Shown: positions 4,763 through 55,773 of the stretch, piece by piece
Position numbering within the stretch: position 1 is the first letter of the stretch
Layout: the number at the start of each line of letters is the position of its first letter
Source: an uncultured Gammaproteobacteria bacterium
Lineage (GTDB): Bacteria; Patescibacteriota; Patescibacteriia; CAYZDG01
Assembly: GCA_964536515.1 (NCBI GenBank)
Contig: CAZHXI010000002.1
Coordinates: forward strand, 60,908-124,907
Direction: 5' to 3'
DNA: 64,000 nucleotides
Program-made: the position numbers and the translations under genes
The notes under the pieces: generated by a model
The model's input: only the letters and a program-made list of their open reading frames with translations
What the model was told of the DNA's origin: nothing
The model's database searches: none

Positions 4763-7081
4763 CTAGCGCCGCCTCCTTGCTGCCGCTGCCTGCTGCTGCT
4801 TGATCTCGGCGATCAGCGCGTCTGCCTCCTCGCGGTAGCGCGGCTCCAGACGTGCGGCTTCCTCGGCGGCGGCAATTGCCTGGTCGTACTCCTCCGTCTT
4901 CTGGTGGGCCAGCGCCAGCGAGCCCCACACCTCTGCCCTGCTCGGGCTAAGGGTAACGATTCGGCGGTAGGTATCCACCAGCTTGGGCCAGTCCTCTGCC
5001 TTGATGTACAGGTCTACCAGGCGCTGCAGGTTGTAGCCCTGCCCGTACACCTGCTCGGCGAACGCTGGATCCTCCATGGCGTGCTCCATCAGCTTGCGCC
5101 CCTCCTCCAGCTGGCCGGCGCGAACCAGCACGGTGCCCAGCGTCCACTCGGTGAACGGCACGCCCGGGGTTAGCTCCACCATCTTGCGGTACAGCGCCAC
5201 CGTATCCTCCGTGCGGCCCATGGCTCCCAGGTACAGCCCCTCGTCCAGCATCAGCTCTATGCGTTCCGGCGACTTGCCGCGCGCCTCCTGGATAATGGCC
5301 AACGCCTTCTGGTACGCGCCTGGGTCCTTGGCCATCTCGCCGCGGATAGCCACCACCTTGGCGTACTGCAGCGCCGTCTGCAGGTCGTACGGGTAGGCCT
5401 CGTACGCCTCACGAAGCTTGTCCTCGGCAAACTTCAGAGCCTCATCGCGTAGCGCATCGTTGCCATCGAAGTGGCCGGCCTGGACGTGCGCCATCATCGA
5501 GGCCGCAACCTGCCGGGGCACCTCCTGGCCGCCGGTTCCCAGGGGCGAGCTGTAGATGACGTCGCGGAACAGGGCGAGTTGGTCGGGAATCGCTGCCGCA
5601 TCGCGGTCGAAGTACTTGCTGGCGATAATGGCACGGCTAACCTGGTTGGTGCGGTAGTTAATGGGCAGGGCGTACAGCAGCATTGCCGCGGCGTACACCG
5701 CAGCCAGGGCGGCGAGCCACCCGTAGCGGCTGTCGGAGGGCTGCTCGGGAGACGCAGCCTCTCGCGGCTGGAAGCTAGCCAGCGCGCCGCCGAGCACCGC
5801 CAGCATCAGCCAGACCACCAGTACGTCGAACAGGAATAGGTTCTGCAGCACGTACGCCACCAGCACGCCGACGCCGACGAGTCCCAACGCCCTGGTTGCG
5901 GGCGTCCGCGCCGCACGCCAGGCCAGCAGCAGCAAGCCGACCACGAACACCAGCCAGGCAGCCAAGCCGACCGCACCCTGCGTGGTCCAAATGTCGAGGA
6001 CAATGTTGTGGGCGTGGTCGAACCAGGTCTCGCTGTTCGGGCCCTGGTAGTGCTTGGGGTTGAAGTGCTGGTTGAACGGCACCGGGAACTGCTCGGGGCC
6101 CCAGCCCAGCAGCGGCCGCTCCTGGATGCCCTGCCAGGCCGAGTTCCAGGTGTAGAAGCGGGTCTTAGCCGTGCTCGCCGTAGGGCTAATATCGGCGAAG
6201 CGCCGCAGCAGGCTGCTGGACTGCACCACCGCAGAGTCTTTGAATACAACCATCAGCAACGGCAGCGCCACGGCCAGGCCAGCCACTACGCCCACAATCC
6301 AGCGCAGCCTTTGGCTAGGCTGGGCCACACCCTCCGTAGGCTTACGGGTCAGCCACAGCCAGGCCACGGCAACGACCGGCAGGCTGGCGAACAGGCCGAG
6401 CATGGCGCCACGGGTGAGGGTGAGCACGAAGGTAACGAGCTGCAGGGCCAGAATGGGCATCCAGAGCCAGCGTCGCTTGTTGGCCCAGTCACGCACCAGC
6501 AGGTAGGCGGCGAACGCCATCTGGAACAGCAGCAGGGCGCCGACGTAGGCCGGGTTGCCGATGCGCGAGCTAATGCGGTCGCGGCCAGCCTCCACCGTCC
6601 AGGTGGCACCGGCCCGCTGCGCCAAGCCGTACAGGCTCAGCAGCACGCTCACACCCACAGCCCAGCGCAGGATCTTCACCCAGTCCTCCCGCCGGAACAG
6701 AGCCGGCAGCACCAGGAACACCGCCACGTAGTGGAAGGTGGTGAATACCCCCTCCATGCGCTCGAAGGTACCGAAGAAGCTGGTGTGCCAGTCCATGCCC
6801 ACGGCAGCGCTCAGGATAGCCGAGCCGAGGTACGCAATGACGCCCCAGGCAGCCAGGGTGAACTTGGGTCGGTACCGTGTGGGGTTTGCCGCCAGCAGGC
6901 CCAGGTACACCAGCACCAGCAGCTCTACCAGCACGCGGAACGTCACGTACTTTGGCACAATGAACGGGAAGAAGTAGCCGTTGCCCACGATTAGCGGGAT
7001 GCACAGCATGGCGTAGACCAGCCAACGGCTGGCCACCAGCAGGCCTCCCTCGTACTTACGAATGGTTTGGAGGATGGTCAT
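4763..7081 (-). CDS. Polytopic membrane protein with O-antigen-ligase (Wzy_C)-like domain and C-terminal TPR repeats
   Basis: About 10 hydrophobic helices in the N-terminal 430 aa. The C-terminal ~300 aa are TPR-like (AYEAYPYDLQTALQYAKV.., AIAAAEEAARLEP). Confidence 0.6.
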   Translation of the reverse strand: MTILQTIRKYEGGLLVASRWLVYAMLCIPLIVGNGYFFPFIVPKYVTFRVLVELLVLVYLGLLAANPTRYRPKFTLAAWGVIAYLGSAILSAAVGMDWHTSFFGTFERMEGVFTTFHYVAVFLVLPALFRREDWVKILRWAVGVSVLLSLYGLAQRAGATWTVEAGRDRISSRIGNPAYVGALLLFQMAFAAYLLVRDWANKRRWLWMPILALQLVTFVLTLTRGAMLGLFASLPVVAVAWLWLTRKPTEGVAQPSQRLRWIVGVVAGLAVALPLLMVVFKDSAVVQSSSLLRRFADISPTASTAKTRFYTWNSAWQGIQERPLLGWGPEQFPVPFNQHFNPKHYQGPNSETWFDHAHNIVLDIWTTQGAVGLAAWLVFVVGLLLLAWRAARTPATRALGLVGVGVLVAYVLQNLFLFDVLVVWLMLAVLGGALASFQPREAASPEQPSDSRYGWLAALAAVYAAAMLLYALPINYRTNQVSRAIIASKYFDRDAAAIPDQLALFRDVIYSSPLGTGGQEVPRQVAASMMAHVQAGHFDGNDALRDEALKFAEDKLREAYEAYPYDLQTALQYAKVVAIRGEMAKDPGAYQKALAIIQEARGKSPERIELMLDEGLYLGAMGRTEDTVALYRKMVELTPGVPFTEWTLGTVLVRAGQLEEGRKLMEHAMEDPAFAEQVYGQGYNLQRLVDLYIKAEDWPKLVDTYRRIVTLSPSRAEVWGSLALAHQKTEEYDQAIAAAEEAARLEPRYREEADALIAEIKQQQAAAARRRR

Positions 7082-7110
7082 AGGCCTAAAATACTACCCT
7101 ACTCCGCAGC

Positions 7111-7145
7111 GAAAAGACCACCCCCCGCCTTTCGGCGGGGGGTGG
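7111..7145 (-). terminator. Intrinsic terminator after the giant surface-protein gene
   Basis: 12-bp GC stem ccaccccccgcc/ggcggggggtgg with tttc loop. On the minus strand it is followed by UCUUUUC. Confidence 0.6.
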
Positions 7146-7193
7146 CTTTGGCTAACCTAGTTGGTCAGTCCAGATTCTACGTTCAGCCGAAGC

Positions 7194-10100
7194 TTACTGG
7201 TAGGTAACCTGGGCCGAGGTCACCGGGTAGCTGTCCGAAGCGTCCTGCTGGGCGCTGTAGAAGCCGCTGTAGCCAGCCGGGGTGAACTTGTACAGTACAC
7301 CGCCAGCGCTCCAGAGCCGAGTACCGCCGTTGCCGGTGGTGATCAGGGCGCTGTCGCTAGACGAGAAGCCCCTAGTACCGGTGGCCTGCACCTGGATGGA
7401 GCGGGTAGCCTGGCTGCTGCCGCTGTTGGCCGCTACGTTGGCGGTGTTAGCACGGATGCTGAACACGCGCGAGCCATAGGTGCCGCCGGTGGCCGCAGGA
7501 ACGACGGCATTCGACGCAGGCACCGTGAAGGTGGTGGTCGTAGCCGAGTTGGGACCGGCACCACAGGAAGCCAGGGTGGCGATGTTGGTACCGCCACACA
7601 GGGCTACCGCCGCAGCTGCCGAGGCCAGCTCGAGACCGTTGTCGTCGAACAGCTTGAAGGTGTGGACATAGTCCATAGCCGACGTGCTGGACGAGAAGCC
7701 ACCGGCATTGAAGCTGAAGCCTAGCTGGTTCAGCGTCATGCCGACCTGGCCGTAGTTGCGAACCTCGAAGCGGGCGATCTCATCGTTGATGCCACGGACG
7801 TGGTAGCTGCCTACCGGCAGGCTCACGATCACCGGGGCGGTGTCGATGTAGAGGTGCTTGTTAGTCTCCGCGGTAATGCCACCAGCCGACTGCAGAGTGG
7901 CCTGGATAGAGCTCGAGCTATTCGAGCGCAGATCGAGGTAAGTACTGCTATTGGACTTGATCTTAACCGAGAAAACAGTTGTAGAAGCACCGCTACCCGA
8001 GTTAGCGATGTTCGCCTTCACAGTCAGCACGCCTCCAAAGTCACGCAGGAAGGTAACCGGCGTGGCAAAGGTGAATAGTGCATCGCAGGTGGAAGAGGCT
8101 GCAGCGGTGCCGTAGGTCGAGCTGTCGAGGCCCGAGTCATACTGGTAGCAGTTGGTGCTGCCCAGCTGAGTGGTGCCATTGAACAGCTTGAAGCCCGTGA
8201 AGATACGAGTACCAGAGGCGTTCGGGGCAAGGCCCTCGTTAGCGCCAGTGGTAGAAGCGGTGATAGCCAGCTTGTGCAGGTGCACGTCCTCGTTCAAGAC
8301 CTCGAAGCGGAAGCTACCGACCTCAAAGTCCTGCGTGCCAGCCGTAGCGATCTTCGAGTTGTTGTTCGAGGTGCTCTCGAAGTAGGCGCGTACTGCGGCA
8401 GCAGCCATCGAGTTCATCTGGCCATTCACTGCGGTGGTCGGAGCCTCTACGGTGTTGTTAACCGCGGAACCAACAATGTGGTTGGCGGCCAGCTGGGCGT
8501 AGATGACCGTACCGTTCGCAATGGACGAATTGAAGTCCGCGCTAATACCCAGAATGCGGGTGCTGTTCTGGGGAATCGTCCACTGCATGGTGAACGAGTT
8601 CGATGTGGTAGCTACCGAGCTGCGAGTGCTACCGAGCTGCACCGGGGTGCCGCTGGTAATGTCCCACAGCTTCAGGTTAGTCAGCTGAGTCGGAACGTTC
8701 ACCGCGCCGGTACCAGCGAGGGTAACGTTGATGCTGTTAATCAGCACGTTGGCGCTACCGGCCGACTGGTTACCCAGTACGAAGGTTGCGAAAGTTGCAT
8801 TGTTCGTACCCGGAGCAACGCTATTCGGGTCAGAAGGCGTGGCGTGCTTGGTAACCGTGAGCGAAGTCGAGCCAATAGTCAGCTGACCGGCCTGCTGCCC
8901 CCCCGTGGCTACATTGGTGTAGTCCAGGCTGTTCAGCCGGCGCGCGTAGAAGTTACCCAGCTTGATCTGAATCGTATTGCCGCTGTGGGCATTATTCAGA
9001 AGACTACCCATCACCTTAATCGTCTTCATCTGGCCGGTAACCAGCGAGATGTAGTTACTGAACGAGGTCTGAGTCGTTAAGCCGGAGGTGTTGTAGGTAG
9101 TGGTCGCGTTCGCGGTACCAGTGTAGTACACCGTGCCGGTGTTCGCATCTACGATCGACAGGTTACCCGTGAAGTCGTAGAAATTGGCATTCTGCAAAGC
9201 GAACTTCTGAAGCTCCAGGTTCTCACCGTTAGCGGTGATGTCGAACCTGGCTAGCTCCACGTTATTCGCACCCAACGTCAAGTTACCCGACGGTGAAGCG
9301 GTGCTCTTGCTGATGGTCAGCTCGCCCTGCTTCATCTTGAAGTAACCGTTGGTCGAAATTTCTGAAGTCCAGGTACCCTCATCGCCATCCAGGGGAAGGA
9401 TGTTGGCACCGGTGGTCAGACCGCGCACCAGGACATCGTAGTCATTCTGGAGCTGCAGACGGAACCAGCGGTTGGCACCTCCCGTAGCATCCACCTTTAC
9501 GGTGAGGTTGCGGTTCTGGCCCTGCGGGATGGTGTAGGGGCTAGACATGGTTACCGTTACGTACCGGTTGGTGGCGCGGGCAGCGCTGCCCAGGGCTACG
9601 CCATCGGGGCCGTAGACGGTGAAGTTAGCGAGGTCGGTAGCCTCGTTGATGTCACCCTCTACGTAGAACGTAAGCTGGCGCACCTGTACATCCTCGCGAG
9701 AAGAAGTCTCAGAGAACTGGAACTTAGCAACCTCCATCTGGGTGTTGCCTACCTCCAGGTTACCATCAGCCGTCGAGGCGCTATTGCCAACGGTCGTCAG
9801 GCCGTCAACCTTCACGGCACCTACGCTGTTCGCGCCGTTAACCACGCTCATGGTGTTACCCATCAGCGGGAAGACGCCGTTAACAGACGGGGTATTTGTA
9901 AAGGTCAGATGGCTGGCGCCCGCTACCGAGAAATTCACGGTTGCGCTGTCAACCGAACCAGAAATATTGGCGGCAACCGTCACGCTGCGGGTCTGGCCAG
10001 CCGGAATGACGATCGGCTCGCCAGAGAAACCCACAGTTCCCATGCCGTCGCTGGTGAGCGCGGTAAGGATGCTGCCATGGCGGACACCGTTCTGGTCCCA

Positions 10101-48414: not shown

Positions 48415-51237
48415 CTACTTCCCCACGGGCTTGGACCCCGTGTCCGTCGGCATTGTGCTCAACCCCGCGTCGGCGTCCTTGGGCGGCTTGGTGGGCAGGG
48501 TGAAGTAGAACGTGGTCCCCTTCCCCGGCCCGGGGGACGTTACCCAAATCTTGCCGGCGTGCGCCTCGATAATCTTCTTGGCGATGAACAGGCCCAGGCC
48601 GCTGCCCTGCGACTCCTTAATCTTCACCCGCTCGCCGCGCGAGAACTTGGCGAACAGCGCCTTTATCTCGTCTGCGCTCAGGCCCATGCCGGTGTCGGAG
48701 ACGGCCACCTCTACCTCGGCCGGGTGCGCCGCCACGCGGACGGTAACGGACCCGTGCTCGGTGTACTTAATGGCGTTGTCTGCAAGGTTAACCAGCACGT
48801 CACGGATCTTGTCGCTATCTGCCGGAACCGTGGCCACGTGCTCGGGCGCCTGCAGCTCCAGCGTCAGCCCGCGGGCCTTGGCTGCCGGGCGCAGCTCGGT
48901 TACCACCACCTTGGCCAGCTGGGCTAGGTCGATGTCCGACCGGGCCAGCTGCAGCCGGCCGCTTTCGATGCGCGACACGTTGAGGAACACGTTCACCAGA
49001 CGGATGAGCCGATTGGTGCTGTCGTACACCGTCTGCAGCACCTCGCGCTGCTCCTTGGTAACCTGCCCGTAGTCCCCCTCCAGCATCATGGACAGGAACC
49101 CCTTGATGCCCGTGGTGGGCGTACGCAGCTGGTGGCTGGCGATGGAGAGGAACTCGCTCTTGGCCTTGTCGAGCTGCTGCAGGTAGTGGTTAGCCTCGTT
49201 CAGCCGGCCGTTCAGCTTCTCTAGCTCGTCGTACACGCGGGTGCGCTCCAGGGCGATGCCCACCTGGTCTGCCACGGCCTGCAGCAGCAGATAGTCTTCG
49301 TCCGTCAGCGGCGGGCGCTTCATTCCGAAGACGAAGATGAGGATGCCGGTAACCTGCCCGCGCACGGTGAGCGGCACGGCCACGGCCTCGCGCATTGCCC
49401 CGGCCACGTTCTGCAGCGCCCACACCAGCGGCTTGGCAATGCCCGGCCGCAGGAAGTCGTACAGGTCGGCGGTCTTCTGCATCTTCTTCTCGCTCACCAC
49501 CTTGGTCAGCAGGTTGTCGCGGTTCGACAGCGGCACGCGGTACTTGGTCAGATCCGTACCCAGCAGCCGGATGATCTGCCGCGCAATGGCGTAAGGCTGC
49601 GAGATGCTACGGCCGTACAGCTCGCGCTTCTGCTCGTCCACCATCACCAGCACGGCCATGTCGCAGCCCGGAATTTCGCCCGGGATATAGTCGATGATGC
49701 GCTGGCTCATCTCCTCCAGCCGGTAGCTCTGCAGAATGACGTTGGCGAACTTCTGCAGGGTGTTCAGCCGGTCATTACGCGTAGCCAGCAGGCCGTTCAC
49801 CTCCTGCAGCCGGGCGGTGGCAGACTCCACCTTCTTCTGCAGGTTGGCCGAGTAGTCTTGCACCTCACTGTACAGCTGGGACTTCTGCAGGGCGGCGGAC
49901 AGCTGCGGGGCGAGGACTTGGAAGAGGTTGAGATCGTCCACGGTGAACGAACCTCCACTCAAGCGTTCACCAACAAAAATTATGGCCCGAAGCTCACGCT
50001 CATTATAGACGGGCACGATCATTCCAGCCTTCATTGCGGCCATCTGTTCTGACACCGGCACTAAGTCGGAGACAGAGGCTGGATCCTCGGCGTCAGAGAT
50101 TCGCCTGCGTAGCTCTTCAGCGGCAAGAATTGCTTCGTGCTTAGCCAATTCGACAATCACCGGTGTATTGCTAGGTATGACCGTGCTACCAACCAAGCTA
50201 ACAAATCCGCTGCCACCCCTAAGCAGCAGTATATCGACGGAGCTCAGTTTAAGAAGCTTTGCGGCTGACTTCGTTACGTCTGTTACCAAACGCCTCGTAT
50301 CAAGCTCAACCGAGAGGATATTGCTCATCGTCCGCAGTGCGTCAGCGTAATCAATTCTCGCTTGATAGAATATTTTATCGGTTGCCTTACCGAGCATTGC
50401 CTTAAGCGGTTCCAAGCCCAGAACGATGATGAATGAGACTACCAAGTTCACAATCAACGAATCTGATTTCGTGAGATCCTTGAAAAGCGCGCCTGTAATC
50501 GATGTAACGAATGTAAAGGCGAGAATAATTGTTGCGACCAATAGGGCGTAGACCAAGCTACGAGAAATGAGCTGCCGAATGTCCATCAAGCGGAACCTGC
50601 TCATGCTGTAGAAGGTGAACAGCACGAATATGAACGCCCCGACCACATCGAACTGGCTGAACTGACGTATTCCGAATAGTGGCAACACAAAGCTGACGAG
50701 CGTCGCTATAACATTGAACGTCGCCGCACCGAATGCCACGTAGCGCATCTGTTGCTGCAATAACCCGCGTGAGACAATCGCCGCTCTGATCAAAACGATG
50801 CTGAGCCACATCAACGCGGCAGTAATAATTACCGTATACACCGAGAAGAGTGGCCCGAACTCCCCCTCGAACCAGCCGAAGTGAACGACATCAACGCGCT
50901 TGATAATCCAAGGCGTAAACAGCGATATCGAAAATAGTACCGCCCCCGTAATGTAGATAACCCTCGCCCGAATGGCTCTATGGCGGCGCTTGAGGAGTAA
51001 GTCGAACCAAATTAGACCATTGGTTAGAAGCAACGCTCCGGCTGCGTACTGCATTCTGACCCAAATAGGTGCGTGGGTGACACCGGTCATGAAATTCGCC
51101 AAAGCCCAGAAAGCATTGCTCAGGGCGAACGGGAGGAAGAACCTATTCAGTTGAGCCTTGGGGCTTTGGTAGTAGGCCGCGGCAGCAAGCAGCAAGCTCA
51201 CTACGCCTGTCGCCGCAACGATGAGGAAGCTGAGCAT
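48415..51237 (-). CDS. Sensor histidine kinase (multi-TM sensor, GAF-like region, HisKA, HATPase_c)
   Basis: H-box LSIASHQLRTPTTGIKGF. N/G1/G2 boxes (DNAIKYT.., DTGMGL, GSGLGL). Six to eight N-terminal TM helices. Confidence 0.8.
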   Translation of the reverse strand: MLSFLIVAATGVVSLLLAAAAYYQSPKAQLNRFFLPFALSNAFWALANFMTGVTHAPIWVRMQYAAGALLLTNGLIWFDLLLKRRHRAIRARVIYITGAVLFSISLFTPWIIKRVDVVHFGWFEGEFGPLFSVYTVIITAALMWLSIVLIRAAIVSRGLLQQQMRYVAFGAATFNVIATLVSFVLPLFGIRQFSQFDVVGAFIFVLFTFYSMSRFRLMDIRQLISRSLVYALLVATIILAFTFVTSITGALFKDLTKSDSLIVNLVVSFIIVLGLEPLKAMLGKATDKIFYQARIDYADALRTMSNILSVELDTRRLVTDVTKSAAKLLKLSSVDILLLRGGSGFVSLVGSTVIPSNTPVIVELAKHEAILAAEELRRRISDAEDPASVSDLVPVSEQMAAMKAGMIVPVYNERELRAIIFVGERLSGGSFTVDDLNLFQVLAPQLSAALQKSQLYSEVQDYSANLQKKVESATARLQEVNGLLATRNDRLNTLQKFANVILQSYRLEEMSQRIIDYIPGEIPGCDMAVLVMVDEQKRELYGRSISQPYAIARQIIRLLGTDLTKYRVPLSNRDNLLTKVVSEKKMQKTADLYDFLRPGIAKPLVWALQNVAGAMREAVAVPLTVRGQVTGILIFVFGMKRPPLTDEDYLLLQAVADQVGIALERTRVYDELEKLNGRLNEANHYLQQLDKAKSEFLSIASHQLRTPTTGIKGFLSMMLEGDYGQVTKEQREVLQTVYDSTNRLIRLVNVFLNVSRIESGRLQLARSDIDLAQLAKVVVTELRPAAKARGLTLELQAPEHVATVPADSDKIRDVLVNLADNAIKYTEHGSVTVRVAAHPAEVEVAVSDTGMGLSADEIKALFAKFSRGERVKIKESQGSGLGLFIAKKIIEAHAGKIWVTSPGPGKGTTFYFTLPTKPPKDADAGLSTMPTDTGSKPVGK

Positions 51238-51243
51238 AGCGCC

Positions 51244-52437
51244 TTACGCGATGCGCTTGAGCGTCGCTACCAGGCCATCAATGCTCTCTCGAGAGTGGCT
51301 ACTCATGATCGAGAATCTGATCCGGGCCATTTTCCTAGGTACGGCCGGCCAACGCACGGCGGGCGCATAGTATCCAGCCTCAAACAATTTATGGGCTAGG
51401 TCCATAGCTCGGTGCTCGTCTCCTACCAATACTGGGACTACCTGGGTTGTGCTACGGAGCGTATCGAAACCTTGCTCGTGCAGTTTCTCACGGAAGTACC
51501 GCGCATTCTCTTGTGCCTGTTGCTGCAACTCGGGCTCGCGCTCAAGAATATCGAGCGTGGCAATTATCCCAGCGGCTGCTGCAGGCAGCATGGAGTCTGA
51601 AAAGACGTAGGTCCTACATCCAATTCGGAGGTAATCAATCAACTCCTTTGAGCCGCTGACGAATCCGCCAGCAACACCGATCCCCTTGCTGAATGTCCCC
51701 ATATTGATATCTACCATTCCCCGGCGCCCGAGGTGATCTGCGCTGCCAGCCCCGTTCTTACCGAATACGCCGAATGCATGAGCGTCGTCCACCATGGTCC
51801 AGGCATCGTACTTCTTTGCAAGGTCAACAATTTCGGCAACGGGAGCAAAGTCACCATCCATACTGAAAACGCCATCGAATATGACGAGCTTGCGGTACCG
51901 CTTAGCGGAGTACTTCTTTAGTAGCTTCTCGAGCCTCTTAATATCATTGTGAGGAAAAACCTCGACCTTCTTTACCTTCGCCAGACGGCAGCCATCTACG
52001 ATGCTCGCGTGGTTGTACTCATCGCTGAAAATTATGGTCGGCATCGCCTTGAAGTAGTCGGCGAAGCCCAGCATATTAATTACAGCAGGTATGACGCCTG
52101 CATTTGTTCCGAACCCCGTGGGGATGGTCAAACAATCCTCGTGCCCGGTCAGAGCCGCTACTCGGCGCTCTAACTCACGGTGGATATCCATTGTCCCCGT
52201 CAAAAGCCTAACCCCGCCGCTGCCGGCACCGTACTTATCGATGGCTACTTTCATCGCATCCTTTACCTCCTGTCGGCCAGCTAGGCCCAAGTAGTTATAG
52301 GAACCGAACATCTTTATCTGACGGCCACCCACGGTCACCTCTGGCCCCGTACCGGACTCCAGAATATGTGTCTCTGGGTACCCCAATTCCGTGTGGGCGT
52401 AGTCCAGCAGCTTCTTGATCGGATCGAAGAATGACAT
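51244..52437 (-). CDS. PLP-dependent alpha-oxoamine synthase family enzyme (BioF/Kbl/serine-palmitoyltransferase-like)
   Basis: PLP-Lys motif GTFSKGIGVAGGFV, DDAHAFG, SNYLGL-type N-terminus (GSYNYLGLAG). Confidence 0.75.
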   Translation of the reverse strand: MSFFDPIKKLLDYAHTELGYPETHILESGTGPEVTVGGRQIKMFGSYNYLGLAGRQEVKDAMKVAIDKYGAGSGGVRLLTGTMDIHRELERRVAALTGHEDCLTIPTGFGTNAGVIPAVINMLGFADYFKAMPTIIFSDEYNHASIVDGCRLAKVKKVEVFPHNDIKRLEKLLKKYSAKRYRKLVIFDGVFSMDGDFAPVAEIVDLAKKYDAWTMVDDAHAFGVFGKNGAGSADHLGRRGMVDINMGTFSKGIGVAGGFVSGSKELIDYLRIGCRTYVFSDSMLPAAAAGIIATLDILEREPELQQQAQENARYFREKLHEQGFDTLRSTTQVVPVLVGDEHRAMDLAHKLFEAGYYAPAVRWPAVPRKMARIRFSIMSSHSRESIDGLVATLKRIA

Positions 52438-52515
52438 AGGTAATATTCTACCCTACCCCGCCACATCGGGGCTACCATGGACGCTGCACGACCTTACAAG
52501 CCTCAATCGGAATCC

Positions 52516-53100
52516 CTAGATTGCCCTCTTCCTATACGACGGCGGGAGGCGGAGAACAAAACCCCTGGGGTAAAACTTACGTATGGTCTGGGCGTAACTG
52601 GCCAGCGGCTCTAGACCGCACGCCCCCCTTAAGACGTCTACGGAAGCGGGGGCAGCTATAGGGCTGGGGCCAAATCCGCTGCTGCCAATCTTACGGAATT
52701 GCGTACCGAAGCGCTGCTTGCTGCCACGCGCCACAGCCACCCTATCGGTGAGGTACGCCAGCAACCTTGGGCTAGCCTGATTCTCGTCAACTGCACGAGC
52801 CATAAGAGCGAGGCAACGTCGCTGGAGCCCTGGCCTGGTATCCGCGTGCTGAACGAGTAGCCAAAAGGCGTCTCCCGCACGCTTGCCGACCATACTGTAA
52901 GCTGGCCAGCCGTGGTCACGTACGATCTCAACTACCACCTGGCCATTTTGGAGATCTAGGCGTCTAACAGCCTCACCCGCGCGGCGCGCGGCTACGCCAC
53001 CCCTCTTCTGCGCTGCTATCGCCTTCCTCCGGGCACCCTGATCAGCCTCAGCCAAGCGTAGGATTCGATTTCGAAGGCGTACGTTGACCTTTTTTTCCAT
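52516..53100 (-). CDS. Hypothetical protein (194 aa) between ATP-grasp and PLP enzyme
   Basis: Co-directional and tightly spaced; no family recognised. Confidence 0.35.
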   Translation of the reverse strand: MEKKVNVRLRNRILRLAEADQGARRKAIAAQKRGGVAARRAGEAVRRLDLQNGQVVVEIVRDHGWPAYSMVGKRAGDAFWLLVQHADTRPGLQRRCLALMARAVDENQASPRLLAYLTDRVAVARGSKQRFGTQFRKIGSSGFGPSPIAAPASVDVLRGACGLEPLASYAQTIRKFYPRGFVLRLPPSYRKRAI

Positions 53101-53155
53101 GGATAGATACTACAGCTAAATATACAGACCCCGCCACTACTGTGGCGGGGCTAGG

Positions 53156-54103
53156 TTAACTTTTACCTGCGAGCAGATTCGCAATCGCAACACTTATTGG
53201 TAATCCAGTGGCATGCTCAATGAAGTACCACTGACCATTGGGGTTGATTTCAAGAAAAACGTGCTCACCTGTCGGGGTTACGACTACATCTATGCAGCCG
53301 TATCTCAAACCGAGTTTCTCGACGAGCTGACGACTCATCCCTTGAATCGCTGGATCGATTTTGTGGCGCTCAAACTTCAAATCTGGATTGCGGCGCCGCC
53401 AGTCGATCAAATTGACCTCGTATCTCTGGCTATCGACCCGAGCGCAGAATACCTCGGATCCGACGACCGTAATACGTAGCTCGTAATCCTTTGCGATTCG
53501 CTTCTGTAAGATAACCGGAGCGAAACGAAGGCGATCCAGATCTTTTAGCTTCGCCTCGGGAAAGGAAGAGGTGAATATTACGGTATCCTCCAGCGGGCTA
53601 GTGGCGAGCTGCTTAATGACAACGTCACCTTGGTGCCATTCCCAAAAGTTTCTGGCTCGATCCGGCTCACTCGTAACCAACGTGTCAGGCAGGGTCCAGC
53701 CGATCTCCCGAGCGACCATCAATTGCCGAATCTTGCTCTCGGCCGCCATCACATTCGCGTGCGGACTAATCCATCTCCGATCAGCTAACAGATAGATAAC
53801 CGAATGCCAGAGAGCCCTGAACTGATCTCGCATAAAGGCGCGGTAGTCTGGTGGGTCAGCTATCCGCAGCTCCTTCGGCAGGTGCGGCTTTAGATACCAA
53901 ACTGCCTCCACGCTTTCTAAATTGAGACTGTCATCACCCTGCCGAATGTATAGCTGGTGCCCCTCGCTATTTTGTTCGAAGCCAACAACGTGATCCTCCA
54001 GGCACCTATCGGCCATAAAATGGACGAGGTCCATGCCGCGAGATCTAAGGTGGTCAGCAACGGGATCAACGGTATCGAGCGAACAGCCAAATGCCAAAAC
54101 CAT
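53156..54103 (-). CDS. ATP-grasp ribosomal-peptide maturase (MvdC/MvdD/MdnC-like graspetide ligase)
   Basis: C-terminal LGLRYGCIDVVVTPTGEHVFLEINPNGQWYFIEHATGLPI closely matches the microviridin-type ATP-grasp signature. GGAGG SD 6 nt upstream. Confidence 0.7.
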   Translation of the reverse strand: MVLAFGCSLDTVDPVADHLRSRGMDLVHFMADRCLEDHVVGFEQNSEGHQLYIRQGDDSLNLESVEAVWYLKPHLPKELRIADPPDYRAFMRDQFRALWHSVIYLLADRRWISPHANVMAAESKIRQLMVAREIGWTLPDTLVTSEPDRARNFWEWHQGDVVIKQLATSPLEDTVIFTSSFPEAKLKDLDRLRFAPVILQKRIAKDYELRITVVGSEVFCARVDSQRYEVNLIDWRRRNPDLKFERHKIDPAIQGMSRQLVEKLGLRYGCIDVVVTPTGEHVFLEINPNGQWYFIEHATGLPISVAIANLLAGKS

Positions 54104-54132
54104 TATTTTCCTCCCTGTGAATATTTAGGTTC

Positions 54133-54156
54133 GGGAGCCCGGTTGCCCGGGCTCCC
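54133..54156 (-). promoter_or_regulatory. Intercistronic GC hairpin between precursor ORF and ATP-grasp gene
   Basis: 10-bp perfect stem gggagcccgg/ccgggctccc with a 4-nt loop and no U-tract; followed by a GGAGG SD and the ligase ATG. Confidence 0.5.
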
Positions 54157-54174
54157 GTGGTTCAGTCGACTCGA

Positions 54175-54375
54175 CTAATCATAGTCTGATCCGTCGCAGT
54201 CATTGTACGTTCCGGAGGTAGTTCCTCCGGAGCACCCCTCGACATGCTCAGCGAAATCGAGGATAAGCGGGACAACGCCGCACATATCCTTTCCCTTTCT
54301 GCCGGGCGTCCCCGGCGGTTGAGAGCGCTCCTGGCCAAAATTAATCAACGATCCCGGGCCAGTACGGGTCGCCAT
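54175..54375 (-). CDS. Candidate graspetide (omega-ester/lactam peptide) precursor
   Basis: 66-aa ORF, or 36 aa from the internal Met at 54285 with an AAGGGAAAGGA SD. Leader-like PLILDFAEHVEG; core CSGGTTSGTYNDCDGSDYD rich in Thr/Ser and Asp. Immediately 5' of the ATP-grasp gene. Confidence 0.5.
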   Translation of the reverse strand: MATRTGPGSLINFGQERSQPPGTPGRKGKDMCGVVPLILDFAEHVEGCSGGTTSGTYNDCDGSDYD

Positions 54376-54507
54376 TTGTTAACGTACAAGTTACGGCATG
54401 GGTACCAGGGATACCGAAGATGGTCAACCCCGCCACATCGGGGCTACTCTGGGCGTAATTCTGGGGCGTGCAGTGGCGACCCAACCGAACGGTGGTATAT
54501 TCCTACT

Positions 54508-54924
54508 GTGGATAGGAACGTAGCGATAACCCTGGCTATTCTCCGCGACGAAATTCGCGGAGACGTTGAGGCAGCGCTGAAGAAAATGGACCCAGACTAC
54601 TCCATGACCTGGGTCTACCAGGGGTACGACGGCAAGCTGTTCCCCCGGGTGGGGGCGAAGGCCATCAAGAAGTCGCTGAAGGAGGTCTACGTAATAAAGG
54701 GGCGGCGGTACGACATTAAGCACATTGCCACCGGCGGCAACGTGGTGATGGTTGAGATGGTGGAGAGCTACCCAGACCCGAAAACAAAGAAAGTATACCG
54801 AACGCCCCAGGTCATTGTCCTCGAATTCAGGCGGGGCAAGATCCGCCGCGGACGGCACTACTGCGATCCCAGGCTGTCGTACATGTACCTAACGGAGAAG
54901 CAGCTGAAGAAGGCATACCAGTAA
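54508..54924 (+). CDS. NTF2-like / SnoaL-like (ketosteroid-isomerase fold) protein
   Basis: ILRDEIRGDVEAALKKMDPDYSMTWVYQG fits the SnoaL_2 N-terminal pattern. Start uncertain (GTG at 54508 or ATG at 54586). The track start at 54244 would overlap the precursor antisense. Confidence 0.45.
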   Translation: MDRNVAITLAILRDEIRGDVEAALKKMDPDYSMTWVYQGYDGKLFPRVGAKAIKKSLKEVYVIKGRRYDIKHIATGGNVVMVEMVESYPDPKTKKVYRTPQVIVLEFRRGKIRRGRHYCDPRLSYMYLTEKQLKKAYQ

Positions 54925-54928
54925 ACAC

Positions 54929-54954
54929 AGAGCCGGCCCTGGTGGGCCGGCTCT
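54929..54954. terminator. Bidirectional hairpin between convergent genes
   Basis: agagccggccc tggt gggccggctct. Confidence 0.45.
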
Positions 54955-54973
54955 ATTTCAACTCAGAGAATAA

Positions 54974-55768
54974 CTACCTGGTCTCCTTTGGATTCGGCTT
55001 CCAATGACCAACCGGGAGACCGCTTAGCCAGGAGTTACTCACCGCTGCGATCCCATTCACCACGCAATCACCGGTAATGGTTGCCGGATCAGCTACCACA
55101 TCGAAAGTCCCGGCATGAGACTCCACAAGCATCCAATGGAAACTGTCACCAACGGGATTCACCCTGACCTCGTGCTCACGAATGTATCCGTAGATTTGAG
55201 CGTTAGGTGACGGCTCAAATGTATTCTGATCTGTTCCTGGGGGATAGAAAAATCCTGTAGGTACGTACAGTTGCTCAGACATCTTACCCATTCCATCTGC
55301 CTCCCTAAACTCCTCGACCGTCTTATAGCAGCGAACATCTTTTGCAAAAGCTGCAACCTGCAAGAGTACGTTATCGCCAGCTTCAGCGGGGGGATCGAAA
55401 TTGAAGATGCGATCGCTGACCATTATCGGCGAGAACATCTGCATCTCCCCACCGCCCATATCCGTATATATATCACCGATGAGGTAGCCAGACATTGTAT
55501 CGTGAGCTGCGCTGGTCTTAGCCACCCGATGTATGAGCATATTGACCCTGCCCTTGCCATCAAAGTGCGGAAAGAAATCTGCGAGCTCGTTCTTATCGGT
55601 CATGTGGAGCCAGAGCTGCGCTCCCCCGCCTGGCTCGTAGAGGCAATAGTTGCCGCCCTTAACCGGTATAACCCTACACTCACGTAGGGCCACCTTTAGG
55701 ATTGCCTGGAACTCCTCGTAGTTATCTGGATCGAACTTGAAGCCAACGTTGCTGTAGGGTATTGGCAT
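54974..55768 (-). CDS. Hypothetical protein (264 aa), low-GC island
   Basis: Co-directional array with the genes below; no family recognised. Confidence 0.35.
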   Translation of the reverse strand: MPIPYSNVGFKFDPDNYEEFQAILKVALRECRVIPVKGGNYCLYEPGGGAQLWLHMTDKNELADFFPHFDGKGRVNMLIHRVAKTSAAHDTMSGYLIGDIYTDMGGGEMQMFSPIMVSDRIFNFDPPAEAGDNVLLQVAAFAKDVRCYKTVEEFREADGMGKMSEQLYVPTGFFYPPGTDQNTFEPSPNAQIYGYIREHEVRVNPVGDSFHWMLVESHAGTFDVVADPATITGDCVVNGIAAVSNSWLSGLPVGHWKPNPKETR

Positions 55769-55773
55769 AGGTA

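Follow-up and report, generated by a model that had tools for sequence, protein, structure and literature searches.

Does the row of minus-strand genes near 54 kb of the DNA analysed here (64,000 nucleotides of contig CAZHXI010000002.1 from an uncultured bacterium, called the window below) encode a graspetide, one class of RiPPs (peptides that are made on the ribosome and modified after translation), and which of these genes belong to the pathway? The initial annotation had read positions 52516-54375 as a microviridin-like cluster made of a precursor, a hairpin, an ATP-grasp ligase, a 194-amino-acid (aa) protein of no recognised family and a pyridoxal 5'-phosphate (PLP) enzyme. All these parts, and the sequences quoted for them, were found on the minus strand, although the gene of the PLP enzyme lies outside that interval. 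The assignment to graspetide-type RiPPs was borne out, as the ligase belongs to the maturase family, the linked precursor carries a leader motif and its core contains Thr donors and Asp acceptors. The precursor, a single ligase of the MvdC/MvdD family and a DUF6624 protein constitute a conserved gene set, with a hairpin between the precursor and the ligase. We consider it highly probable that this is a genuine graspetide module of a family resembling the published group 42; our confidence in the ring topology and in the role of DUF6624 is much lower. Judged from its sequence, the locus is a new short-linker member of a predicted, experimentally untouched graspetide group and not a microviridin.

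In the map of open reading frames (ORFs), all substantial genes at 48.4-54.4 kb of the window lie on the minus strand. The order of transcription is small ORF, hairpin, ligase, second hairpin, 194-aa protein, PLP enzyme and histidine kinase. The features as far as the 194-aa protein are the following, where RBS denotes a ribosome-binding site:

54175-54375, minus strand: small ORF in its longest reading, 66 aa, ending ...LILDFAEHVEGCSGGTTSGTYNDCDGSDYD
54287-54295, minus strand: RBS of the precursor, GGGAAAGGA, just 5' of the internal ATG at 54285
54175-54285, minus strand: precursor peptide gene, 36 aa, MCGVVPLILDFAEHVEGCSGGTTSGTYNDCDGSDYD, followed by the stop codon
54132-54157, minus strand: stem-loop located between the stop codon of the precursor and the RBS of the ligase, CGGGAGCCCGG-GCAA-CCGGGCUCCCG, with a GC-rich stem of 11 bp
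54110-54115, minus strand: RBS of the ligase, GGGAGG
53156-54103, minus strand: ATP-grasp graspetide synthetase (macrocyclase), 315 aa
53128-53151, minus strand: terminator-like hairpin between the stop codon of the ligase and the start of DUF6624, 10-bp stem with 8 GC pairs, tail CTGTATATTT (a weak T tail)
52516-53100, minus strand: DUF6624 protein, of 194 aa when read from the ATG; other gene callers use an alternative start that gives 179 aa

The precursor, the ligase and the DUF6624 protein are present in one copy each, and no second copy of any of them was found in the window.

The extent of the precursor gene was established by comparison with locus L001, a metagenome contig from ENA whose ligase (P0002) is 79% identical to that of the window and is directly preceded by the peptide MGGFIPLILDFAEHVEGCSGGTTSGTYNDCDGSDHD. 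In the nucleotide alignment of the two loci, a 2-nt and a 1-nt indel located 5' of the internal ATG break the 66-aa frame, and no indel occurs from this ATG onward. A purine-rich RBS stands just 5' of the ATG in both loci (GGGAAAGGA in the window and GGAGAAGG in L001). Twelve codons of the precursor differ between the loci, eight of them synonymously, and in residues 6-34 (P6 to D34) all seven changes are synonymous. Because of the position of the indels, the RBS and the synonymous codon changes, we place the gene at 54175-54285, from where it is separated from the ligase gene by 71 nt; the 66-aa reading is ruled out as an over-extension. In the peptide, the leader motif PLILDFAE (residues 6-13) is followed by the linker HVEGCSG and by the predicted core, the C-terminal 15 residues TTSGTYNDCDGSDYD, numbered T1-T2-S-G4-T5-Y-N-D8-C-D10-G-S-D13-Y-D15.

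The ligase alignment was scanned against one genome per GTDB species and the JGI metagenomes, and the small ORFs of the retrieved loci were then searched with a hidden Markov model (HMM) of the peptide. This yielded 36 loci, mostly from Patescibacteria, with 33 unique homologous peptides, nearly all of them encoded immediately 5' of the ligase; the window ORF matched the family HMM with E = 1.5e-21. Conservation of the small ORF beside homologous ligases, which the initial annotation had named as a point to examine, was thus found, and the ORF is a genuine precursor gene, but with a product of 36 aa instead of 66 aa. The family shares the leader consensus P(F/L)IL.(F/L).E and uses one of two linkers, of 6 residues (the type of the window) or of ~16 residues ('V..VYDE..Q.CF'). 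The core is always the exact C-terminal 15-16 residues, at a fixed distance from the stop codon. Its consensus is TT.GT(W/Y).D.D..D and its full pattern T1-(T/S)2-x-G4-T5-(W/Y/H)-x-(D/E)-x-D10-x-x-(D/G)13-x-x. T1, G4 and D10 are invariant in the 33 unique peptides, and near-invariance is seen for T/S2, T5, an acid in position 7 or 8, and D13 or D15. The shortest precursors have only 32 aa and start with MPFIL, the leader motif beginning at residue 2 in some of them. The conservation of the amino acid sequence holds across loci of ~23% to 55% GC despite their divergence in nucleotide sequence.

Neither the 36-aa nor the 66-aa product is present in a collection of 15 billion proteins, in which the flanking ligase, DUF6624 and PLP proteins are found; the precursor gene was therefore called by none of the pipelines represented there. 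The precursors of this family, 32-50 aa long, are systematically missed by gene callers, and mining that takes small ORFs into account would enlarge the family. In one locus (L096, 5083-5244) the order is ligase, DUF6624, precursor. In another (L069, 3788-3935) the leader and the core stand in different frames, which is a frameshift or an assembly error.

The ligase was identified as a maturase of the MvdC/MvdD type and not a RimK enzyme, in agreement with the initial annotation. In Pfam it matched PF21068, the pre-ATP-grasp domain of MvdD (34.5 bits, 2.4e-8, gathering score 27). Full-length matches in NCBIfam were obtained for MvdC (3.6e-64), the SAV_5884 subfamily of graspetide maturases (6e-61) and MvdD (4.9e-59); the maturase models TIGR04185, TIGR04187 and TIGR04184 gave E-values of 1e-59 to 1e-64 and ~200-217 bits. 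The RimK models, in contrast, reached 19-35 bits, with PF08443 at 18.8 bits against a gathering score of 21 and TIGR00768 at 35.5 bits (6.7e-9) against a cut-off of 143. The comparison of maturase models with those of RimK, as proposed at the outset, hence revealed no clustering of the ligase with RimK or glutathione synthetase. Among solved structures the best matches were graspetide macrocyclases, i.e. AMdnB (7m4s, 6.2e-48), MdnB and MdnC (5ig8, 5ig9) and CdnC (7mgv), which aligned over residues ~10-311. The E-values for these four ranged from 6e-48 to 3e-33, and for the best three (AMdnB, MdnB and MdnC) from 6e-48 to 2.5e-39, while PsnB (7drm) was a distant match (4.7e-8). The catalytic and ATP-grasp residues, with K124, K164, R210, E285 and N287 and the block ExNPNGQW, are invariant across 31 homologues of the ligase.

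A neighbour-joining tree was calculated for 147 non-redundant ligases from the fetched loci. The ligases accompanied by the precursor family formed a single clade of 35, and close homologues of the window ligase come nearly all from Patescibacteria. Within the clade, the ligases of the window and of L001 cluster together with those of two further short-linker loci, and this group is sister to the subclade with long linkers. The DUF6624 profile matched 34 of the 35 clade members. In 29 precursor-bearing loci the sequence available downstream covers at least 700 nt, and in 23 of these the DUF6624 gene lies directly 3' of the ligase gene on the same strand. In a neighbouring clade outside the 35, locus L061 contains a different 36-aa ORF rich in Thr, Ser and Asp, MKVETFAFLCAIESNPDQAASVSWTTGSDTGSDADD (4960-5070), between the ligase and DUF6624 genes, which may represent a distinct type of precursor.

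The hairpin that follows the precursor gene proved to be a feature of the whole family. In the window, the 81-nt intergenic stretch between the precursor and the ligase has a minimum free energy of -34.3 kcal/mol (z = -5.3), and none of 200 shuffled sequences was as stable. L001 has the same ten central stem pairs (GGGAGCCCGG/CCGGGCUCCC) and the same loop. Of 25 non-redundant loci, 23 contain a strong stem-loop of 10-16 bp in the 90 nt that follow the precursor stop (z from -2 to -7.5), often with a trailing T-run in AT-rich genomes, as in an intrinsic terminator. The sequence of the stem-loop varies between loci; its presence and position are conserved. Most likely, it serves as an attenuator or as an element that stabilises the 3' end of the transcript, and an excess of precursor over enzyme is a common arrangement in RiPP operons.

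To place the module among known systems, we compared it with published graspetide groups. Makarova et al. (Biol Direct 2022, PMC8939145) described two branches of graspetide ATP-grasp enzymes in the candidate phyla radiation (CPR), which come with a 'Phhx(1,2)h' leader, T/D-rich cores and 'cluster 23', an uncharacterised protein in which His and Arg residues are conserved. Using an updated module of RODEO, Carter, Ramesh, Saad, Mubarik & Mitchell (ACS Chem Biol 2026, PMC13097080) sorted graspetides into 43 groups. Their group 42 comprises 22 biosynthetic gene clusters (BGCs), many of them from candidate phyla, with DUF6624 in 81.8%, and is represented by the precursor MKKNSTPKPLILDRLRQPIEDIYKGGEKAMEGFTTHGTPNDPDSGGTD of Ca. 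Komeilibacteria. Group 42 probably overlaps 'branch 1/2' of the CPR ATP-grasp enzymes, and the 'cluster 23' protein is probably DUF6624. Among the papers searched, none besides Carter et al. mentions DUF6624, and none names graspetides together with Patescibacteria. The rows listed from the supplementary table of PMC13097080 contain no match to the short-linker precursors.

The window resembles group 42 in several respects. Its host belongs to a candidate phylum (Patescibacteria), it pairs a single graspetide synthetase with DUF6624, and the leader (K)P(L/F)IL(D) and the core G-x-TT-x-GT-x-x-D-x-D are common to its precursor and the representative, which aligns within the seed alignment of the precursor family. 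In the tree, the clade of the window ligase is sister to the loci with long-linker precursors of the representative's kind. The differences are the linker, of 6 residues in the window and ~16 in the representative, the D at core position 13, the total length of 36 aa and the GC-rich genome.

Microviridins (group 1) share with the window the ATP-grasp fold of the ligase and its catalytic residues, AMdnB, MdnB and MdnC being the best solved matches, and the same chemistry between Thr/Ser and Asp/Glu side chains would be expected. The initial annotation had considered both the core and the leader to be unlike those of microviridin, and only the first of these statements held. The core TTSGTYNDCDGSDYD, and the family consensus TT.GT(W/Y).D.D..D, are unrelated to TxKYPSDx(D/E)(D/E); the window core lacks the conserved Lys, so no lactam is expected. 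The leader, however, is of the same type: PLILDFAE fits Phhx(1,2)h, and it and the family form PFILxFLE are variants of this motif, as is PFFARFLE of microviridin (PMC8939145). Microviridin clusters further contain two ligases, one forming esters (MdnC/MvdD) and one forming amides (MdnB/MvdC), whereas the window has one. They are accompanied by a GNAT acetyltransferase and an ABC transporter, whereas the window ligase has DUF6624, a PLP enzyme, a kinase and a SnoaL-like protein as neighbours.

In plesiocin (group 2) and thuringinin (group 3), a single ATP-grasp ligase forms several esters from Thr residues on the N-terminal side to acids on the C-terminal side. The three hydroxyls followed by three acids in the window core would fit the same logic of nested hairpins, but the core spacing is different, those precursors have repeats where the window has a single 15-residue core, and PsnB is only a distant relative of the window ligase. 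In the rosaritide pathway, the MirC protein, with a PpiC-type peptidyl-prolyl isomerase/chaperone domain, is required for the stability and activity of the ligase MirB (PMC13097080). Rosaritide and the window have in common a strictly co-occurring non-ligase protein beside the synthetase. DUF6624, in contrast to MirC, has an unrelated all-alpha fold, and its binding to the ligase is a conjecture.

Based on these comparisons, a working model of the pathway can be proposed. By analogy with MdnC, MdnB, CdnC and PsnB, the leader helix PLILDFAE would dock on the ligase and activate it. With ATP, the ligase would phosphorylate the side-chain carboxylates of Asp residues in the C-terminal 15-residue core, and the conserved Thr hydroxyls would attack them to form two or three side-chain macrolactones, each with a loss of 18 Da. 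The rings might be nested in a hairpin-like manner, T5-D8, T2-D10 and T1-D13, as in plesiocin and thuringinin, which is a guess from the conserved residues. The hairpin after the precursor would most likely attenuate read-through or stabilise the short transcript, so that the precursor would outnumber the enzymes.

Several points weigh against the assignment to a group-42-like graspetide module or limit it. The ligase scored below every equivalog cut-off of the NCBIfam maturase models (MvdC 216.9 versus 425, MvdD 200.1 versus 475, and the third model 206 versus 350), and because all maturase scores fall below these cut-offs, we regard it as a member of a divergent subfamily and not as a microviridin enzyme. 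Membership in group 42 would follow from the similarity of the precursor and of DUF6624, with a long-linker representative set against a short-linker precursor. The number of rings, their connectivity and even the formation of esters are expected by analogy. The hairpin in the window has no T-run, so that termination is not assured. Finally, the module has no conserved protease, transporter or immunity gene beside it, which leaves maturation and export unexplained.

The 194-aa protein had been taken for a non-standard companion. Instead, it belongs to DUF6624 (PF20329 in Pfam, 3.6e-16), which is published as a component of 82% of the group 42 BGCs (PMC13097080), is present in nearly the whole ligase clade (34 of 35, see above) and is a standard partner in this graspetide group. 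DUF6624 homologues are numerous and broadly distributed (Patescibacteria, Myxococcota, Planctomycetes). In some of them the N-terminus is extended by a hydrophobic or signal-like segment, or additional domains are present; such additions are lacking in the CPR versions, that of the window among them. Since they carry no signal peptide, the proteins of the ligase clade would be cytoplasmic. Thirteen residues (Q21, W65, P66, W80, L81, Q84, H85, A115, L117, D119, R120, Q134 and R158) are invariant in 45 diverse DUF6624 proteins, which suggests a defined binding or catalytic site. The AlphaFold2 model of the protein is all-alpha with two short strands (predicted local distance difference test score 95.9, predicted template-modelling score 0.89). 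A Foldseek search of the PDB with this model returned nothing informative, the best hit having E = 0.56 and a template-modelling score of ~0.33 (14-3-3 and designed repeat proteins). In a search of PDB sequences with the DUF6624 profile, the sole match was a designed repeat protein (1e-3).

DUF6624 would act on the peptide or the ligase, or together with one of them, and its possible roles can be ranked only tentatively. The ranking takes into account that the protein is predicted to be cytoplasmic in this clade, that the module has no linked protease or peptidase-transporter, and that partner-dependent synthetases have a precedent (PMC13097080). A processing hydrolase, e.g. a leader peptidase, is our tentative first choice, because of the missing protease and the invariant polar residues Q21, H85, D119, R120, Q134 and R158. 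An obligate partner or chaperone of the ligase, in analogy to MirC, is placed second and might be possible; further tailoring of the peptide or self-protection makes up the remainder.

Downstream of the DUF6624 gene, the row continues with three further genes:

51244-52437, minus strand: PLP enzyme of the alpha-oxoamine-synthase (AOS) family (BioF/Kbl/SPT-like), 397 aa
48415-51237, minus strand: sensor histidine kinase (HisKA_7TM-GAF-HisKA-HATPase_c), 940 aa
48036-48347, minus strand: DNA-binding protein of the Trp repressor family (PF01371), 103 aa, just 3' of the histidine kinase

The PLP enzyme is AOS-like, as initially annotated, but it is not a conserved partner of the module. It matched the NCBIfam models BioF (5e-114), Kbl (4e-112) and SPT (5e-108) with ~360-380 bits, in all cases below the curated cut-offs, and its best solved relative is a bifunctional AONS/KBL enzyme (7poa, 7.6e-81). 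The gene is absent from L001, which retains the precursor, the hairpin, the ligase and DUF6624, and from every other locus of the precursor family. Elsewhere it was found only in L061, the Patescibacteria locus with the MKVETFAFLCAIESNPDQAASVSWTTGSDTGSDADD ORF, whose ligase is 32% identical to that of the window. In both loci the PLP gene lies 6-7 nt 5' of the gene of a multi-pass histidine kinase (6 nt in the window), and in L061 the PLP-kinase pair (5646-8526, minus strand) is on the opposite strand, convergent on DUF6624. As the gene is missing from L001 and the other family loci, is paired with a kinase in L061 and is preceded in the window by a hairpin and a TAGAAT box, the PLP enzyme probably forms a separate, adjacent unit with the kinase.

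Kinases of the HisKA_7TM type are encoded no more than 5 kb away from the module in the window, in L001 (9115-10948), L006 (1452-3647), L016 (233-3596) and L100 (576-4642), and the L061 kinase is of a related multi-pass type. GAF domains are present in the kinases of the window, L006 and L016; that of L100 has none. The gene that precedes the kinase varies, being methyltransferase-like in L016, and a hexapeptide acyltransferase and an NAD_binding_4 reductase in L100. A kinase of this kind recurs beside the module without being universal there. A link in regulation or signalling is possible, with shared synteny as the alternative.

The most far-reaching reading of these data would join both observations. 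DUF6624 would represent a novel class of enzymes that process RiPPs or assist in their synthesis, obligatory for the clade (for example the missing leader peptidase or a second tailoring step). The module would moreover be wired to the 7TM-GAF kinase, which in the window follows the AOS enzyme in the manner of CqsA/CqsS, and the peptide would act in a signalling or conflict circuit between cells or between symbiont and host rather than as a stand-alone protease inhibitor. We consider this combination improbable.

Quite improbable, too, is the reading in which the graspetide is a secreted signal or a regulated output of the 7TM-GAF kinase, in loose analogy to the sensing of Agr cyclic peptides by a multi-pass kinase, or in which the AOS enzyme and the kinase form a CqsA/CqsS-like pair that controls its production. 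It draws on the recurrence of HisKA_7TM(-GAF)-HisKA-HATPase_c kinases near the module, on the L016 kinase, which shares the strand of the precursor and lies directly 5' of it, and on the resemblance of the PLP-kinase pair to CqsA-CqsS and LqsA-LqsS, the model of the alpha-hydroxyketone autoinducer synthase matching the PLP enzyme at 4e-52. The score for CqsA is, however, 177 bits, compared with ~375 bits for BioF/Kbl/SPT. Most family loci have no kinase within the available sequence, and the shared ancestry of the genomes inflates the co-occurrence. The window has no response regulator adjacent to the kinase, the module has no linked exporter, and most of the characterised graspetides are protease inhibitors.

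A tailoring role of the PLP enzyme, for instance the condensation of an acyl-CoA with a residue of the peptide, would make the product a new hybrid graspetide. The gene lies on the same strand, 78 nt downstream of DUF6624, an AOS-type gene also occurs ~1.6 kb from the DUF6624 gene in the distant L061, and scores below the BioF, Kbl and SPT cut-offs leave the substrate undefined. The gene is nevertheless missing from L001, in spite of the 79% identity, and from all other loci with the precursor. Both of its occurrences are directly 5' of a histidine kinase, in L061 on the opposite strand, and in the window the hairpin and the -10-like box precede it. To our knowledge, every characterised AOS relative acts on free amino acids and acyl-CoA and none on peptides. 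We regard such a role as highly unlikely.

Scarcely credible is the proposal that the small ORF is not a gene but a regulatory RNA or leader region, and that the ATP-grasp enzyme modifies another substrate (by RimK-like glutamylation or small-molecule ligation), for although its products are absent from the protein collection and a strong RNA structure adjoins it, the amino acid conservation across loci of very different GC content despite nucleotide divergence, the fixed core-to-stop distance, the synonymous changes, the RBS, the lack of an Rfam family (best match rne-II, 14.4 bits against a threshold of 50, in a search with the precursor and its 5' untranslated region) and the low RimK scores beside ~200 bits for peptide maturases all speak against it.

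With the graspetide module as the preferred reading, the exotic look of the locus can be accounted for: DUF6624 is the partner to be expected, and the PLP enzyme, which pairs with the kinase, is a bystander. Graspetides are an established RiPP class, to which the window adds a member and not a concept, and the CPR loci and the DUF6624 association had been flagged by genome mining in 2022 and 2026 (PMC8939145, PMC13097080). A specialist would not be surprised by the locus, but as a target for experiments it is clean, minimal and unexplored: no member of group 42 has been chemically characterised and no structure has been solved. The precursors of 32-36 aa are among the shortest graspetide precursors seen here and offer a minimal, tractable system in which leader recognition and the formation of rings can be studied. 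DUF6624, with its near-perfect linkage to the clade, a confidently predicted fold without solved relatives and an invariant polar site, is a candidate for a new RiPP-associated activity. In an uncultured Patescibacteria host with a reduced genome, any secondary metabolite may bear on symbiont-host biology.

Further observations concern the non-coding parts of the locus. Each intergenic gap of the gene row has its own GC-rich hairpin (gaps 52438-52515 and 53101-53155, minus strand); the one 5' of the PLP gene, GCCCCG-atgtgg-CGGGGT, is followed by the TAGAAT -10-like box. These hairpins hint that the row is not one simple operon. Two blocks 5' of the precursor start, GACCCG.ACTGGCCCGGGATCG and GCCGGGGACGCCCGGCAGAAA, are conserved between the window (54286-54400, minus strand) and L001 (4720-4819), and the second folds into a hairpin of 6 bp right before the RBS. 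The blocks may act as promoter, operator or RNA element. A sigma-70 promoter scan found nothing above expectation near the precursor. A riboswitch-like 5' untranslated region was considered and dropped, as the fold of the 118 nt upstream (z = -0.41) was no better than that of shuffled sequences.

On the plus strand, a 226-aa ORF that overlaps the small ORF was rejected as an over-extension, its match to a SnoaL-like domain being limited to residues 105-202. In an identical public contig the SnoaL-like gene is called with 138 aa (~54508-54924 in the window), and it does not overlap the precursor.

A search of anti-phage defence systems with PADLOC gave no match for the ligase, DUF6624, the PLP enzyme and two neighbouring proteins. 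The graspetide module adjoins a conflict-type RHS toxin island. Within 57860-63997 (minus strand), an RHS-repeat protein of 1380 aa is followed by a 425-aa ORF that contains a near-exact copy of the last ~190 residues of the RHS core and then a different C-terminal domain, which is a typical orphan toxin cassette. Five small proteins without a Pfam match are encoded 3' of this cassette (small ORFs at 54974-57873, minus strand) and are possibly immunity genes. The DnaB protein of the window is 70-73% identical to proteins of Ca. Komeilibacteria, Kerfeldbacteria, Uhrbacteria and the 'Patescibacteria group'. The GC content of the window averages ~62%, which is unusually high for Patescibacteria. 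It is 0.60-0.69 over most of the window and 0.50-0.55 at positions 50001-58000, a stretch that includes the module, and this low-GC segment of 50-58 kb, with the graspetide module and the toxin island, suggests a variable or acquired region.

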